Position numbers and translations under genes: made by a program
Shown: positions 11,113-36,395 of the stretch, piece by piece
Layout: the number at the start of each line of letters is the position of its first letter
Numbering within the stretch: the first letter of the stretch is position 1
The notes under the pieces: generated by a model
The model's database searches: none
Told to the model about the DNA's origin: nothing
What the model saw: only the letters and a program-made list of their open reading frames with translations
Origin: Myxococcota bacterium
Lineage (GTDB): Bacteria; Myxococcota_A; Polyangia; Polyangiales; Sandaracinaceae
Reading direction: 5' to 3'
Assembly: GCA_036149055.1 (NCBI GenBank)
Contig: JAYZQJ010000144.1
Span: 1-36,395, forward strand
DNA length: 36,395 nt

Positions 11113-11775
11113 TCAGGCCGCCTCCGCCAGGCGGCTGTTGAGGTGCTCCACCGCGCGCTTCTGCAGCTGGCAGACGCGCGACTCGCTGATGCCCATGCGG
11201 CGGCCGATCTCCTTGAGCGGCAGGCCCTGGAAGAGGCCCAGCTCGAGCGCCTGACGCTGGCGCTTCGGCAGGATGCCGAGGGCCTGGATGAGCTGCTCGC
11301 GCTGGTGGTTGGCGTGCGCCTGCTCGTCGGCGAGCATGTTGCGGTCGTCGACGAGGCGGGCCGAGAGCGGCTCCTCGTAGCTGGCGGCGGCGTCCATCGA
11401 CACCAGGCGACGCGCGGCGATCGCGCGGCCCTTCCGCTCCTCGTCGCCGGTGGTCTTGCCGGCGGCGTGCTTCACGACCAGCCGCATCTCGTCGCGGCTG
11501 CGGGGGTCCAGCCGGCGGATCGCGTCGATCATGCGCTGGCGGATGCGGGTGCGGACCCAGGTCTGCTCCTGGATCCCGTAGCCCTGGTAGCTCGAGAGCG
11601 CCTCGAGCACCGCGACGCGACCCTCGGCGTGGAGGTCCTCCTCGTCGAGCGCGCGGCCGGCCGAGGCCAGGGGTCGAAGACGGCGCGCCATCGCGCGGAC
11701 CAGGCCTTCGTACTTCTCGAGCGCCTCGCGGGCGTCGGCGTTCTTCCAGGAAACCTTCTTCTCTCGCTTCGCCAT
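11113..11775 (-). CDS. sigma70-family sigma factor, FliA/WhiG-like (compact)
   Basis: Region 2 'EDLHAEGRVAVLEA..RIRQRMIDAIRRLD'; region 4 'LKEIGRRMGISESRVCQL'; GGAGG SD before the ATG at 11775. Confidence 0.88.
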   Translation of the reverse strand: MAKREKKVSWKNADAREALEKYEGLVRAMARRLRPLASAGRALDEEDLHAEGRVAVLEALSSYQGYGIQEQTWVRTRIRQRMIDAIRRLDPRSRDEMRLVVKHAAGKTTGDEERKGRAIAARRLVSMDAAASYEEPLSARLVDDRNMLADEQAHANHQREQLIQALGILPKRQRQALELGLFQGLPLKEIGRRMGISESRVCQLQKRAVEHLNSRLAEAA

Positions 11776-11810
11776 GATGTCCTCCAAATCCCTTCGCGGT
11801 TCTTCCCTTC

Positions 11811-11826
11811 TTCAATCGACGTGCCA
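11811..11826 (-). promoter_or_regulatory. sigma54-type -24/-12 promoter of the sigma factor gene
   Basis: TGGCAC-GTCGA-TTGA versus consensus TGGCAC-N5-TTGC; correct GG-N10 spacing; about 35 nt upstream of the ATG. Confidence 0.7.
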
Positions 11827-11927
11827 GCGATGCGCAGGTCGGGGACAGTCAGAAAAATGACAGGTGATCCCGGGGGGTTGCGCCCCTACGGCCGAACCCG
11901 GCCAGTTTTGAACCCCTGTTCGAATGT

Positions 11928-12001
11928 GTGCGGTTCAGTGCGGTATCGATCGAGATCGCTTGAACGTGTCCGCGCGATAGCGCACGGTTTCGCACGGTTT
12001 C
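11928..12001. promoter_or_regulatory. Tandem 10-bp direct repeats, candidate enhancer (UAS) for a sigma54 activator
   Basis: GTGCGGTTCA/GTGCGGTATC (11928-11947) and GCACGGTTTC x2 (11982-12001), about 100-175 bp upstream of the -24 box. Confidence 0.5.
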
Positions 12002-12080
12002 GAGCGCATCGGATCGAGACCGAGGTGATCGCTCGTCTCTTTTCGGCGCAGGCCCTCCAGCCCCGGGCCCGGCGGCCGTT

Positions 12081-13568
12081 CTATCTCAGGCCGTACTTGC
12101 TGAGCCGGCGCAGGACCTGGTAGCGCGAGAGGCCCAGCTGGCGCGCGGCGGCCGAGACGTTCCCCCCGGTGGCCTCGAGTGCCTCGACCAGGCGGCGCTT
12201 CTCCTCGGCGGCGTGGGCCTCGCGGATCGCGGCGAGATCGGGCGGGGCCCCGGCGCGCGCCGGGCTCGGAGGCGCGCTCTCCGGAGGACGGTGCAGCGGC
12301 GCCGGTGGCTGGGGCGGCTGCGAGTCCCCCAGCTGCAGCCCGGGCGGCGGCGCGCTCTCCATCGGCGGGGCGAACACGCTCTTCGGGGGCTCCCAGCCGC
12401 TGGCCACCTTGGTCAGGACCGGGAAGGCCTCGAGGGTGATGGTGTCCCCCGGGCTGAGCAGCACCGCCTGCTCCACCATGTTCCGGAGCTCCCGCACGTT
12501 GCCCGGGAAGGGGTAGCGGGACATCGCCTCCAGCACCTCGGCGTCGAAGGCCGGCTCGTCCCGCCCGAGGGTCCGCGCCCGCTCCTGGGCGAAGTGGGTG
12601 GCGAGCAGGAAGATGTCGTCCCCGCGCTCGCGGAGCGGCGGCACCTCCACCACGAACACCTCGAGCCGGTAGCGCAGGTCGGCCCGGAAGCGGCCCTCGG
12701 CCACCGCGCGGGAGAGATCGCGGTTCGTCGCCGCGATGATGCGGGCCTCGAGCCGGCGCGGCTTGGTGCTGCCCACGCGGGTGAACTCGCGCTCCTCGAG
12801 CAGCCGCAGGAGCTTGGCCTGCATCGGCAGCTCCAGCTCGCCGATCTCGTCGAGGAAGAGGGTGCCCCGGGCCGCCGCCTCGACCCGGCCGGTCTTGCTG
12901 TGGGTCGCGCCGCTGAAGGCCCCCTTCTCGTGGCCGAACAGCTCGCTCTCGACCAGGGTGGCGGGGATCGTCGTGCAGTCGACCGCCACGAAGGGCTCGT
13001 AGGCCCGGCCGCTCTTGGCGTGGACCAGCCGCGCGATGACGCCCTTGCCGGTCCCCGTCTCGCCGACCACGAAGGCGGTCGTGTCGTCCGACTTGGCCAG
13101 GGCGTCGAGCCGGCTCCGGAGCCGCCGCATCGCCGCGCTCTCCCCGAGCATGCCGCCGTCGCCGCCGTCGGTGGCCCCCGCCTCCACCACCCGACGACGC
13201 AGCCGGGCGACGTCGACCGCCCGCTCCACCCGCATCGTCCACTCGGCGGGCTCGAGGTCCTTGGCCACGTAGTCGAACGCGCCGCGGCGGATGGCGTCGA
13301 CCGCGAGGCTGAGGTCCGGGTAGGCGGTGTTGAGCAGGAACACGGCCCCGGTCGCCTTGGGGCGCAGCTCCTCGAGCAGGTCGAGCCCGGTCGCGTCCGG
13401 GAGCTGGTAGTCGAGGATGACGACCTCGGGTGACGCGGCGTCGAAGCGCGCCCTGGCCTCGGTGGCCGAGCCGACCGTGGTCACCTCGTGGCCGCCTCGC
13501 TCCAGCGTCCGGCGCAGGGTGCGCGCGTAGACGGGATCGTCGTCGACCACCAGGAAGCGCGCGCTCAT
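12081..13568 (-). CDS. sigma54-dependent response regulator (REC-AAA+-Fis HTH, NtrC family)
   Basis: REC 'LVVDDD..ILDYQLPD'; 'GETGTGK', 'ESELFGHEKGAFSGA', 'GTLFLDEIGEL', 'FPGNVRELRN'; HTH 'GNVSAAARQLGLSR'; ATGA overlap with ygfA. Confidence 0.95.
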   Translation of the reverse strand: MSARFLVVDDDPVYARTLRRTLERGGHEVTTVGSATEARARFDAASPEVVILDYQLPDATGLDLLEELRPKATGAVFLLNTAYPDLSLAVDAIRRGAFDYVAKDLEPAEWTMRVERAVDVARLRRRVVEAGATDGGDGGMLGESAAMRRLRSRLDALAKSDDTTAFVVGETGTGKGVIARLVHAKSGRAYEPFVAVDCTTIPATLVESELFGHEKGAFSGATHSKTGRVEAAARGTLFLDEIGELELPMQAKLLRLLEEREFTRVGSTKPRRLEARIIAATNRDLSRAVAEGRFRADLRYRLEVFVVEVPPLRERGDDIFLLATHFAQERARTLGRDEPAFDAEVLEAMSRYPFPGNVRELRNMVEQAVLLSPGDTITLEAFPVLTKVASGWEPPKSVFAPPMESAPPPGLQLGDSQPPQPPAPLHRPPESAPPSPARAGAPPDLAAIREAHAAEEKRRLVEALEATGGNVSAAARQLGLSRYQVLRRLSKYGLR

Positions 13569-14164
13569 CCGATCCGCAGCACCTTCTGATCGGTCACGAT
13601 GGCGTGCACGGGCGCGTCGGTGTCGACGTTCGGGACCTCGGCGATCTGCTCGAAGTCGAACACGAGCGCGACCCGGAACGCGTTCTCCAGGCGCGGCAGC
13701 AGGCGATCGTAGAACCCCTTGCCGAACCCCACCCGGTGGCCGCGGTCGTCGACGGCGAGCGCCGGCACCAGCACCAGGTCCACCGCCGCGTCCTCGACGG
13801 TCGGCGCGTCCTGGGGCGGCTGGAGGAACATCATGCCGCTCTCCTCGAGCGCGGTCTCCGGCGTCCAGCGGGCCAGCTCGAGCGCGCCCCAGTCGGTGCG
13901 CGAGAGGCGGGTGGTCGCGACCTCCTTGCCGGCCGCCCAGGCCGCCTCGACCGCGGGCCGCGTCTGCACCTCGCGCGGCATCGACACGAACGCGAGCACG
14001 GTCCGCGCGCGCTCCCACTCGGGCAGACCGATCAGCCGCTCGCAGAGGGCGGCCGACCGGCGCTCGCGGGCGTCTCTGGGCAGGGCGCGTCGGGTGGCGA
14101 GGCGGCGGGTCCGGATCTCCGCCTTCACCTGCGCGCGGATCGAGGCCTCGTCGGGCGGCTCCAT
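13565..14164 (-). CDS. ygfA: 5-formyltetrahydrofolate cyclo-ligase
   Basis: 'DLVLVPALAVDDRGHRVGFGKGFYDRLL'; alternative ATG at 14176. Confidence 0.93.
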   Translation of the reverse strand: MEPPDEASIRAQVKAEIRTRRLATRRALPRDARERRSAALCERLIGLPEWERARTVLAFVSMPREVQTRPAVEAAWAAGKEVATTRLSRTDWGALELARWTPETALEESGMMFLQPPQDAPTVEDAAVDLVLVPALAVDDRGHRVGFGKGFYDRLLPRLENAFRVALVFDFEQIAEVPNVDTDAPVHAIVTDQKVLRIG

Positions 14165-34354: not shown

Positions 34355-34696
34355 TCAGCCGAGCGCGGCGAGGAAGCGCTGCAGCTGCTGACGCTGGGCG
34401 GGGGTCAGCGCGCCGAACCGGACGCCGGCCATGTGGGTTCCGTCGTCGCTCGGCGCCGTCCAGGCGACGGTGGCCTGGGCCTCGAAGGGCTCCTCGTCGG
34501 GATCCTCGATGCCGTCCTGGGTGAGGAAGAGCGTGAGCTGGAAGACGGCGCCGTCCTCGAGCGGGCGCGAGAGGGACAGGCCGACGCCGCCTTCGCTGAC
34601 GTTCTGCGTCGCGGCCGCGACCGTGTGATGTCCGAGGGTGAGCTCGGCGGCGACCTCGACACGAAATCGCGGGTGTTGGCGCAGATCGGTGCTCAT
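34355..34696 (-). CDS. Stand-alone PilZ domain protein
   Basis: RxxxR 'RQHPR'; (D/N)xSxxG 'NVSEGG'; 'AGVRF'. Confidence 0.88.
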   Translation of the reverse strand: MSTDLRQHPRFRVEVAAELTLGHHTVAAATQNVSEGGVGLSLSRPLEDGAVFQLTLFLTQDGIEDPDEEPFEAQATVAWTAPSDDGTHMAGVRFGALTPAQRQQLQRFLAALG

Positions 34697-35313
34697 TCGG
34701 CGTCTCGCTCCCGGCCGCCCATCATGCGTGTGAAGCCCCCGTCCGTAAAGGCGTTCAGCAGCGCCTCGATCTCCAGCACCCGGAGCGCGCGGGCCACATC
34801 CACCCGCCCGGCCAGGTCGCGCTCGAGCTGGATGCGGCGTCGCTCGAAGTAGAGGTGCGCGATGGCCCGGGCGAGGTCGGCCTGCTCGCGCTCGACCGAG
34901 CGGAGCTCACGCAGCATCGGCACCTCCTCGTTCGCGAAGACGATGCGATCGAAGCGGAAGGTCAGGGCCGCCTCGAAGGTGAGCGCGTCGTCGGTGGACA
35001 CGTTGGTGACCGCGTCTCCGCCGGTCAGTCCGCGGAGATCCACCGTCTGGCCGCGGCGCAGCGAGGCCCGGGCCGTCGGGAGCCAGCCGGTCGCCCGCGC
35101 GCGGTCCATCGCGTCCCTCACCCGCCCGGGGGACGCGGTCCGTGCGCGCAGCGCCGCGTCGATGACCCGGGCCACGCTCGGCTCGCGCCGATAGCGGTAG
35201 AGCGCTCGCTCGATGCGCTCCGGGGTGACGGCGGCGGTGGGCTCGCTCGCGGCCTGCGCGTGCGCGGTCAGCGGCGCGAGCGAGAGGAGCAAGAAGAGGA
35301 GGGTCTTGTTCAT
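34693..35313 (-). CDS. Secreted protein resembling a single outer-membrane-efflux (TolC half) repeat
   Basis: Signal peptide; 'ARATGWLPTARAS', 'AALTFRFDRIVF', 'LARAIAHLYFERRRIQLE'; ATGA overlaps on both sides. Confidence 0.65.
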   Translation of the reverse strand: MNKTLLFLLLSLAPLTAHAQAASEPTAAVTPERIERALYRYRREPSVARVIDAALRARTASPGRVRDAMDRARATGWLPTARASLRRGQTVDLRGLTGGDAVTNVSTDDALTFEAALTFRFDRIVFANEEVPMLRELRSVEREQADLARAIAHLYFERRRIQLERDLAGRVDVARALRVLEIEALLNAFTDGGFTRMMGGRERDAE

Positions 35314-35636
35314 GGTTCTTCCGTTTCGATTCGGGCGCCCTCGAGCGCACGCCACCGGGCGCGGCGCTCCCAGGCGCAGAGAGGCGCGGTCACGCAGGGC
35401 ACCGGAGACGTGATCGAGGGCGGCTCGTCCGGTGGCGTGCGCTCGAGCGTGGCCGGGCGCGGCGGAGACAGCCTCCATCGCAGACCGCCTTCCACTCGCC
35501 ACCCGGCAGACGCGTCGTCGTCTCCGCGCGCCTCGGTCACCGCGCCGCGCACCACGAGACGAGGTACCCAGGCGCTGCCCTGCGCGGCGGTGCACCCACC
35601 GAGGAGCGCGCAGACGACGACGAGGTGGCGGCCCAT
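35310..35636 (-). CDS. Small putative lipoprotein
   Basis: 'MGRHLVVVCALLGG-C'; stop codon overlaps the next ATG. Confidence 0.6.
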   Translation of the reverse strand: MGRHLVVVCALLGGCTAAQGSAWVPRLVVRGAVTEARGDDDASAGWRVEGGLRWRLSPPRPATLERTPPDEPPSITSPVPCVTAPLCAWERRARWRALEGARIETEEP

Positions 35637-35649
35637 GCGCCGCACCACG

Positions 35650-35664
35650 TCAAGCCACGTGCCA
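35650..35664 (-). promoter_or_regulatory. sigma54-type promoter of the lipoprotein/TolC-like/PilZ operon
   Basis: TGGCAC-GTGGC-TTGA, ending 13 nt before the ATG at 35636. Confidence 0.65.
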
Positions 35665-35674
35665 GGGTGCGCTC

Positions 35675-36021
35675 ACCTGATTTCGCACACTTACGGGCGC
35701 GGATCGGCGGAGGTGGCGGAGGATCGGGTGGCGGCCGCCGCTCGGGGGTGGGGTCCGAGCGCGAACGAGAGCGATGAACCGCTTGCCTCCAGTCGCCTGC
35801 CGTCCCCTGCGTTCCTGGGCGGCGTTGCTTCTTTCGGTCACGTGCTGAAAGCACGCTCCCTCGTCGCGCCTTGCCCAGAGAACGCAGGAAACGACAAGCT
35901 CGGTCCGGCTGGCAGTGCATCGCTCCCAGACCCGCGCTCGGACCCCCCTCGCGGCCGGCGTCCGCCACCCCTCGGCCCGCCACCCCCGCCAATTCGCCGC
36001 CGCAAGTGCCCGAGATCACGT
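35675..36021. repeat. ~345-bp imperfect palindrome centred at 35848
   Basis: 35678-35763 pairs ungapped with 36018-35933 (about 65 of 86 Watson-Crick by hand count); inner stems GAGCGATG/CATCGCTC, CCTGCGTTC/GAACGCAGG, CTGGGC/GCCCAG; apex CGTGCT-GAA-AGCACG. Confidence 0.85.
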
Positions 36022-36031
36022 CGCGGCGGGT

Positions 36032-36046
36032 CGGTACGGCGGGTGC
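36032..36046 (+). promoter_or_regulatory. Candidate sigma54-type promoter of the transposase
   Basis: CGGTAC-GGCGG-GTGC (GG-N10-GC) at the exact mirror position of the 35664-35650 promoter. Confidence 0.45.
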
Positions 36047-36060
36047 GGTGGGTGGACGGC

Positions 36061-36395
36061 GTGCCCACGCCTCCCCGCTACATCGAGCCGAAGTCCGTCT
36101 ACTTCGTCACCCGCCGCGTCGAAGGGCGGCGCTTCCTGCTGCGGCCGGACGACCGGCTGAGCTCGCTGATGAAGTACATGCTCGCGCACTACGCGAAGAA
36201 GCACGGCGTACAGGTCCACGTCTTCGTGGTGATGAGCACGCACTTCCATCTGGTGGTGAGCGTCGAGGACGGCAACGTGAGTGACTTCATGCACGACCTC
36301 GACCTGCTGCTGTCGAAGGAGGTGAAGGCGTTGCGGTCGGCGGCGCGGGGCGTGACGTGGGAGCCGGGCGAGCTGTCGGTCGTGCAGCTGCTGGA
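36061..36395 (+). CDS. HUH Y1 transposase, IS200/RAYT (REP-associated tyrosine transposase)-like; runs off the window end
   Basis: Hand translation MPTPPRYIEPKSVYFVTRRVEGRRFLLRP..KKHGVQVHVFVVMSTHFHLVV..SDFMHDL..: N-terminal 'YFVTRR' strand and HUH motif 'MSTHFH'; absent from the ORF track because there is no stop. Confidence 0.88.
   Translation, partial: MPTPPRYIEPKSVYFVTRRVEGRRFLLRPDDRLSSLMKYMLAHYAKKHGVQVHVFVVMSTHFHLVVSVEDGNVSDFMHDLDLLLSKEVKALRSAARGVTWEPGELSVVQLL

Follow-up and report, generated by a model that had tools for sequence, protein, structure and literature searches.

The large palindrome in front of the transposase gene is a real but composite symmetry, in which the ancestral promoter of the left operon and that of an inserted Y1/HUH gene flank a decayed MITE-like hairpin. 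We consider it probable that the cassette forming its arms is a predicted sigma54 promoter of the host DNA-uptake genes, that the transposase is made during competence, and that the palindrome is such a three-part composite. The evidence comprises the anatomy of the locus, an empty site in a congener, the occurrence throughout the order of the cassette before comEA, comEC, comM, radC and long Y1 genes, and a matching switch of promoter type in the comM and Y1 genes of one family (f23). The best reading of these sequences is a predicted sigma54 competence regulon of this myxobacterial order, which mobile HUH elements would have joined. The window, that is, the whole stretch of 36,395 nucleotides analysed, is the entire contig C144 of a genome (G000) of 9.9 Mb and 73% GC; the nearest named homologs of one of its proteins are from Sandaracinaceae. 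The following features were assigned in the window:

34355..34696, minus: PilZ-domain gene (PF07238, E 2.8e-18), overlapping the end of P2 by 4 nt and possibly the third gene of the left operon
34693..35313, minus: second gene of the left operon (P2), 206 aa, with a signal-peptide-like start
35310..35636, minus: first gene of the left operon (P1), 108 aa, lipoprotein-like, no family match
35634..35763, minus: left promoter cassette, ancestral to the host operon (E 6.6e-14, radC/comM-trained model)
35665-35650, minus: its sigma54-type box, GG-N10-GA, with the ATG 14 nt past the box
35693-35678, minus: its IHF-like box
35739-35706, minus: its dyad block
35750-35763 / 35933-35946 (35750..35946), no strand: 14-bp perfect inverted repeat where the cassettes meet head to head
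35767..35929, no strand: central MITE-like hairpin with decayed termini, apex at 35848
35818-35828 and 35862-35873: hairpin core blocks common to a 165-nt MITE family
35933..36063, plus: right promoter cassette, also forming the left end of the HUH element (E 1.5e-09, radC/comM-trained model)
35957-35990, plus: its dyad block
36003-36018, plus: its IHF-like box
36031-36046, plus: its sigma54-type box, GG-N10-GC, with the GTG 14 nt past the box
36061..36395, plus: 5′ part of a long Y1/HUH transposase gene, cut by the contig end

The preliminary description of this locus had read the intergenic gap as one giant palindrome with mirror-image sigma54 promoters, and the signals that it quoted were found in place. 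The IHF-like box TAAGTGTGCGAAATCA (minus, 35693-35678) mirrors CAAGTGCCCGAGATCA (36003-36018) with a position sum of 71696 (axis 35848), the -24 GG pairs are mirrored at 35663-62 on the left and 36033-34 on the right, the apex CGTGCT-GAA-AGCACG is present with 6/6 pairs, and the start codons at 35636 and 36061 mirror to within 1 nt (sum 71697). The locus does carry two outward-facing, predicted sigma54-type promoter cassettes, one preceding the transposase gene, and that gene is a Y1/HUH transposase (PF01797, 26 bits; cut-off 23). In the shuffle comparison that had been proposed, the fold of the 437-nt region was better than that of dinucleotide shuffles (z -4.3, 0/100). However, the gapless pairing asserted for the outer arms was observed for 35675-35763 (67/89 pairs) but not for 35636-35674 (17/39; flank background 26/76), while the inner arms made only 15/77 ungapped pairs and needed bulges to pair (gapped score 41; 0/500 shuffles that high). 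Likewise, GG is present on both sides, but the -12 dinucleotides, taken for exact mirror images, are GA on the left and GC on the right. Within 34500-36395, no Rfam family came close to its gathering score, and hence neither a known RNA nor a riboswitch was recognized.

The empty site that the preliminary description had asked for was found in the congener G001, in which a membrane-protein gene ends 17 nt ahead of the left cassette. The G000 counterpart of this gene lies on contig C22, whose first 127 nt are the last 127 nt of the window; the join of C144 to C22 rests on synteny, because C22 overlaps contig C191 equally well. Taken with this synteny, the empty site indicates that about 1.45 kb in G000, composed of the hairpin, the second cassette, the Y1 gene (299 aa if joined) and a tail, is probably an insertion. 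Orthologs of the left operon were found in 5/5 relatives searched, and the cassette preceded 4/4 of those with visible upstream DNA. Since the left cassette also precedes the orthologous operon in the uninserted congener and is ancestral to the host operon, a single REPIN/MITE palindrome that carries both promoters and plugs host genes into a sigma54 regulon is not supported. The direction looks reversed, that is, the transposase element appears to carry the promoter of its host.

Nor did the palindrome behave as one unit, as only 1/19 cassette matches in the genome has an inverted partner and the centre hairpin is found elsewhere without cassettes. The identity of the left and right arms was 66%, compared with a median of 70% for cassette pairs in the genome (128/153 pairs at least as alike). 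A local inverted duplication as the origin of the arms was ruled out, because this identity falls below the family median. The centre is MITE-like, as had been suggested: 13/14 pattern matches were members of the 165-nt MITE family (control 1), its fold had a z of -2.85, its alignment to the MITE was matched in 0/500 shuffles, and its core is common to a family of at least 13 copies, while the subfamily itself is single-copy in G000. A contig of RNA run X2 matched 35768-35925 alone; this copy is 92% identical, differs in its flanks and has a CTAG junction. The RNA runs (X1-X4) were viewed as assembled contigs and not used as expression evidence; their contigs span the nucleotidase and ribosomal protein genes, with a gap at 35108-35763 that carries no weight. 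On the right side, RNA-run contigs begin or end at 35934-35937, and a 98.5% identical copy on C191 starts at 35937 with a different flank. The palindrome has a common axis because the MITE sits in the loop of the 14-bp repeat formed by the cassette ends; we infer the order of events from this arrangement, with the cassettes head to head and the MITE in the repeat loop.

The 165-nt palindromic MITE has TAGTGC ends and CTAG-like targets, with 13 strong matches in G000 (contigs including C4, C97, C106, C54, C153, C44 and C288) and 9 pattern matches in G001. A sister family has three matches in G010, and the MITE was not found in the 78 other genomes searched. Very abundant clustered intergenic repeats of other kinds were seen at C106 4800-5470 and on dozens of further contigs of G000.

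Both arms belong to one 130-nt cassette family with GGCG/CGCC dyads, an IHF-like box and a sigma54 -24/-12 box. The order of its parts is GGCG/CGCC dyads, an A/T-containing box, GG-N10-GC and a start codon 13-14 nt on, with the dyads conserved about 60-100 nt ahead of the start; the middle box of AT-richer relatives resembles the IHF consensus. BLAST and a profile built from the copies gave 19 matches in G000 at E<1e-11 (reversed-genome best 0.27), so the proposed copy-number check found a cassette that is multicopy and associated with HUH genes. An independent profile, trained on 39 radC and comM upstream regions of relatives with no G000 or transposase sequence among them, recovered the same 19 at E<=7e-4 (reversed-genome best E 2.1). 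The genes behind these matches were comM, radC, comEA, the left operon, a lipoprotein, three of the four Rpn genes and 11 long Y1/HUH starts, many of the latter at contig ends, where one collapsed copy may be counted twice. The comM gene scored over the TIGR00368 cut-off and is followed by recA. Weaker variants precede three further Y1 genes and comEC, where the match does not reach significance by itself (E 0.88), and no cassette lies directly upstream of dprA or comF in G000. The sequence GGTGGCGGCCGCCACC is a perfect palindrome at 6 sites. The lipoprotein (170 aa) belongs to no known family, and its gene carries the cassette in G000 (C58 44122-43613) as well as in the congener G001 (L017).

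Across the order, the same signal was found before the DNA-uptake genes of relatives. With the textbook sigma54 consensus at >=16/19 positions, leaving out paralogs and loci cut by contig ends, boxes were detected before 18/26 radC (controls 2/104) and 15/24 comM in the order (controls 9/96), and before 18/28 comM in a sample of the phylum (controls 4/112). The profile scored >=12 bits directly before 11/26 comEA and at the operon start for 8 of the other 15 (total 19/26; controls 0), and before 9/24 comEC (controls 0; two loci skipped). One signal is therefore common to comEA, comEC, comM and radC, and in front of the single-copy genes radC and comM its architecture is kept throughout the order. 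The Rpn genes of relatives carried the cassette in only 4/29 loci, and the cassette was present in G007, G016 and G027, genomes where no Y1 homolog was found. G000 encodes rpoN and 65 enhancer-binding proteins, which are candidate activators; no activator gene was seen adjoining comM, radC, comEA or comEC in the stretches listed. These patterns suggest that the cassette is a working sigma54 promoter giving nearly leaderless transcripts, and that the regulon is likely the DNA-uptake gene set, a point that the preliminary description had missed.

Further observations concern the surroundings of these genes. In the phylum sample (L104-L128), comM keeps a sigma54-type box in many lineages with differing upstream repeats (e.g. 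CCGGAC/GTCCGG), suggesting a possible drift of activator specificity. In several relatives (L499, L500, L501, L502, L504, L510), a small conserved protein with the motif RIGxAFxNxDGS is encoded between cassette and comEA; it is a candidate uptake or ssDNA-binding factor. At 11116-14018 on the minus strand of the window, a gene for an NtrC-type activator precedes a sigma-70-family gene with a sigma54-type box at 11827-11812, a pair that may form a regulatory cascade.

The second gene of the left operon, P2, belongs to an unnamed conserved family. It is a candidate DNA-uptake component, because its distant homologs (L300, L277, L307, L271, L293, L287) carry a ComEA-type helix-hairpin-helix domain, with PF12836 in 76-100% of the members of the Atlas clusters concerned. 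Within the family, 6/80 loci had a helix-hairpin-helix match just upstream in the same orientation. The predicted structure of P2 (pLDDT 86) gave no PDB match at E<=0.001, the best being TolC at E 0.42, and one Atlas look-alike cluster had an outer-membrane efflux domain in 22% of its members. Among 69 P2 loci from a named collection, some of which may duplicate genomes of the main relatives' set, 7 scored >=12 bits with the cassette profile, all from close relatives, and 62 scored below (controls 0). Two other family members adjoin comM (L303, L273).

The transposase has HFH at residue 61, and contig C22, through the 127-nt overlap, holds Y-x3-NP (YSIVNP) and the stop; the gene thus bears the TnpA-Y1 class 2 signature (HUH and Y-x3-NP), and subclass 2.3 would fit its length, its copy number and the absence of REPs. 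The RAYT model NF047646 gave 39 bits for the cut 111-aa fragment and 18-34 for the paralogs, against a cut-off of 80. As to IS200/IS605 features, PF01797 was just over its cut-off and a hairpin follows the stop on C22; no further element gene was found between this stop and the host gene on C22. The subfamily of the window transposase has at least 4 starts in G000, two of them 98.5% identical in different flanks, and the left boundaries of the elements coincide with the 5′ edge of the cassette. The genome-wide inverted doublets expected of a REPIN-RAYT system were absent, as among the 19 cassette matches only this locus is paired, and the transposase is not the single-copy, non-duplicating gene of such systems, since it has multiple copies and an empty site in G001.

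Of 13 long-Y1 copies examined, 10 have ACCWGG(G/T) motifs at the right end, often as tandem duplicates (against a background of 0.19 per stretch; C74, C128, C7, C1, C22, C136, C165, C176 and C117 in G000). The left ends of the Y1 elements of relatives (L150, L162, L154 and L160) show the reverse form of this motif and tandem duplications, and the motifs are candidate cleavage or end sites. One long-Y1 copy (C17 66400-68700) is interrupted by about 1.8 kb including a third recA-like gene.

To quantify the association of the cassette with Y1 genes, upstream regions of homologs were scored. The profile reached >=12 bits before 36/52 Y1 upstream regions (controls 0/52; 7 loci skipped); after dropping 6 duplicates, the cassette preceded 31/46 distinct homologs in 22/31 genomes, and 15/46 scored under 12 bits. 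The unpublished genome G023 contributed five cassette examples, two of the Y1 regions scored and one Rpn locus; without it the Y1 count is 30/44, and the conclusions are independent of its data. Y1 promoters best matched the radC/comM promoter of their own genus in 18/37 cases among 20 genera (chance 1.85), a match that may come partly from shared descent or base composition, related genomes being non-independent.

In family f23, the comM genes lack a sigma54 box and have GCAA-N15-19-CGATAA instead (4/5 genomes, read by eye), a motif that we take to be sigma28-like. All 12 f23 Y1 homologs with upstream DNA carried this motif (control 0), and it preceded 7/13 f23 comEC with a relaxed pattern (controls 0) and 3/13 with the strict one. 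The strict motif had 14 matches in G058 (control 1), which are 7 Y1 genes, comM, comF and 5 others. In G029, the sigma28-like motif had 38 matches (control 2); the 30 retrieved included dprA and 4 Y1 starts, besides many genes that are secretion-like or unknown. The Y1 genes of this genome have that motif, although the sigma54 cassette stands before its radC, comEC and comEA. In G060, no box was found before comM, and a cassette-bearing Y1 gene is almost identical to one in G028. The patterns of G029 and G060 count against the main reading, as do the dprA and comF genes of G000 without a cassette, its weak comEC variant, the 15 low-scoring Y1 homologs, the few Rpn loci with a cassette and the GA of the left box.

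In the mechanism that we propose, an enhancer-binding protein would bind the GGCG/CGCC dyads, IHF would bend the cassette DNA, and sigma54 would start nearly leaderless transcripts, with the start codon 13-14 nt past the -12 box. A Y1 element with the same promoter at its left end would be expressed together with the uptake genes; it would likely be switched on at the uptake of foreign DNA, because its promoter also precedes the DNA-uptake genes. It is established that Y1 enzymes act on single-stranded DNA (PMC6006769), and transformation supplies such DNA. Since Y1 transposases need such DNA, expression during uptake would supply a substrate or a target; a route between cells, or resistance to cure by transformation, would be further options. 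A more ambitious version, which we offer tentatively and would not yet favour, is that a family of HUH transposons has long been hard-wired to competence, each with the host's uptake promoter at its left end, re-tuned to the local regulator or, after a change of regulator in the host, swapped from the sigma54 to the sigma28-like type, and jumping into or out of transforming ssDNA, with a first sigma54 competence regulon and P1 and P2 as new uptake genes.

It is unlikely, though conceivable, that the regulon is the same but the Y1 proteins are domesticated nucleases that cut or process incoming ssDNA, and not selfish elements. A quick tree, whose promoter labels followed a loose, uncontrolled rule and were used only for this point, placed the sigma54 cassette in both deep Y1 clades (the sigma28-like motif appeared in at least two groups), a point in favour of domestication. 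Bertels et al. suggest such a role for E. coli yafM (in part of 10.1101/119735), and SsnA modulates Neisseria transformation by cutting ssDNA (in part of PMC11893778). However, Y1 copies 98.5-99% alike lie in different flanks, the congener has an empty site, homologs are patchily distributed (30/61 genomes), and the near-identical copies of G028 and G060 come from different orders. This copy pattern favours mobility; the benefit may be selfish spread or host gatekeeping.

We give a still lower probability to a DNA-damage or developmental sigma54 regulon marked by the cassette, in which the transposase exploits stress-generated ssDNA. The genes comM, radC and recA also serve repair, E. coli comM is UV-induced (stated in part of PMC1635313), and dprA and comF of G000 go without the cassette, but throughout the order it is found before comEA and comEC, which serve uptake, and the other recA (on C14) has a different promoter motif, common to a different RAYT family.

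That family is a second, shorter RAYT-like one in G000, with 6 genes and its own flanking repeat. Its members have an ATCTTT..CGTCAGTC motif in common with a gene that resembles imuA by eye and with the other recA (8 matches on C4, C29, C116, C132, C143, C192, C14 and C280, control 0), and the CGTCAGTC block was also seen at some Rpn genes in relatives. Here, HUH elements may have been coupled, in parallel, to a DNA-damage promoter.

The model of the preliminary description, in which a transposase-moved, REPIN/MITE-like palindrome carries both promoters and recruits host genes to a sigma54 regulon, is now very improbable. The significant fold, the MITE-like centre and a multicopy cassette at Y1 left ends agree with it, and elements could have donated the cassette to a few genes, e.g. 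the Rpn copies. Nevertheless, it is largely refuted by the empty site, where the ancestral left cassette is present; in addition, the arms are less alike than typical family pairs, 1/19 matches is paired, the Y1 copies on C191, C185 and C135 have no hairpin upstream, and the architecture is conserved before single-copy radC and comM. Least credible of all is the idea that the motif has no promoter role and is the recognition end of a transposase, dispersed in front of some host genes: although element boundaries at the 5′ cassette edge and the GGTGGCGGCCGCCACC palindrome at 6 sites would suit it, the GG-N10-GC spacing and the distance to the start codon are fixed, the cassette occurs in G007, G016 and G027 where no Y1 homolog was found, and a different promoter-like motif replaces it in f23.

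The predicted sigma54 competence regulon supplies, for myxobacteria, a concrete predicted promoter, a list of genes and new candidates for uptake proteins, which makes reporters and activator pull-downs possible; if true, it offers a way to find myxobacterial competence conditions. It also bears on the means by which HUH elements spread when no transfer route is known for them. If an element keeps the host competence promoter and changes it alongside the host, this would be a case of direct exploitation or of domestication as an ssDNA gatekeeper. Within the literature covered, which was incomplete for subscription journals and supplements, neither a sigma54 competence regulon nor a competence-promoter-bearing transposon was found, nor, with the same incomplete coverage, any account of competence-gene regulation in myxobacteria; PMC3479197 offered nothing of relevance.

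Competence regulons with the same gene set are already known under other regulators. The Sxy/CRP-S regulon of gamma-proteobacteria (part of PMC1635313) and the Legionella set of comEA, comEC, comM and radC together with comF (part of PMC12378983) likewise place the same core genes under one upstream signal, as recognized by similar phylogenetic footprinting. In contrast, the signal described here is a predicted sigma54-type box with dyads and an IHF-like site, known from sequence alone, and dprA and comF are outside the cassette set in G000. Mobile elements active during competence, as predicted here, have a likeness in competence-triggered prophages and RcGTA co-regulation, which act via SOS/RecA or CtrA (part of PMC12378983). 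That review treats transformation and mobile elements mostly as opponents, and its sections 17 and 26 list no transposase that itself carries a competence promoter.

REPINs are inverted doublets of REP type. The present locus resembles them in an inverted doublet adjoining a RAYT-like gene (definition as in part of 10.1101/119735), but here it occurs only once in the genome, with ordinary copies of the promoter as arms. Also comparable are TnpA-Y1 subclass 2.3 or 2.1/TIRYT of class 2, which have in common with these genes HUH and Y-x3-NP, a long C-terminal tail, several copies per genome and no identifiable REP structure; subclass 2.3 prevails in Chromatiales and Alteromonadales, and no mention of promoters or competence was found in the passages searched (PMC6006769). 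The E. coli RAYT yafM is reported to be raised in competence-induced cells (Sinha 2009, as cited in part of 10.1101/119735), and the likeness is a Y1/HUH gene linked to competence control, here by a predicted promoter. While yafM is domesticated, REP-flanked and of a typically single-copy class, the Y1 genes described here are multicopy, encode about 300-420 aa and lack REP doublets; their promoter lies within the mobile unit, and its type changes with the host.
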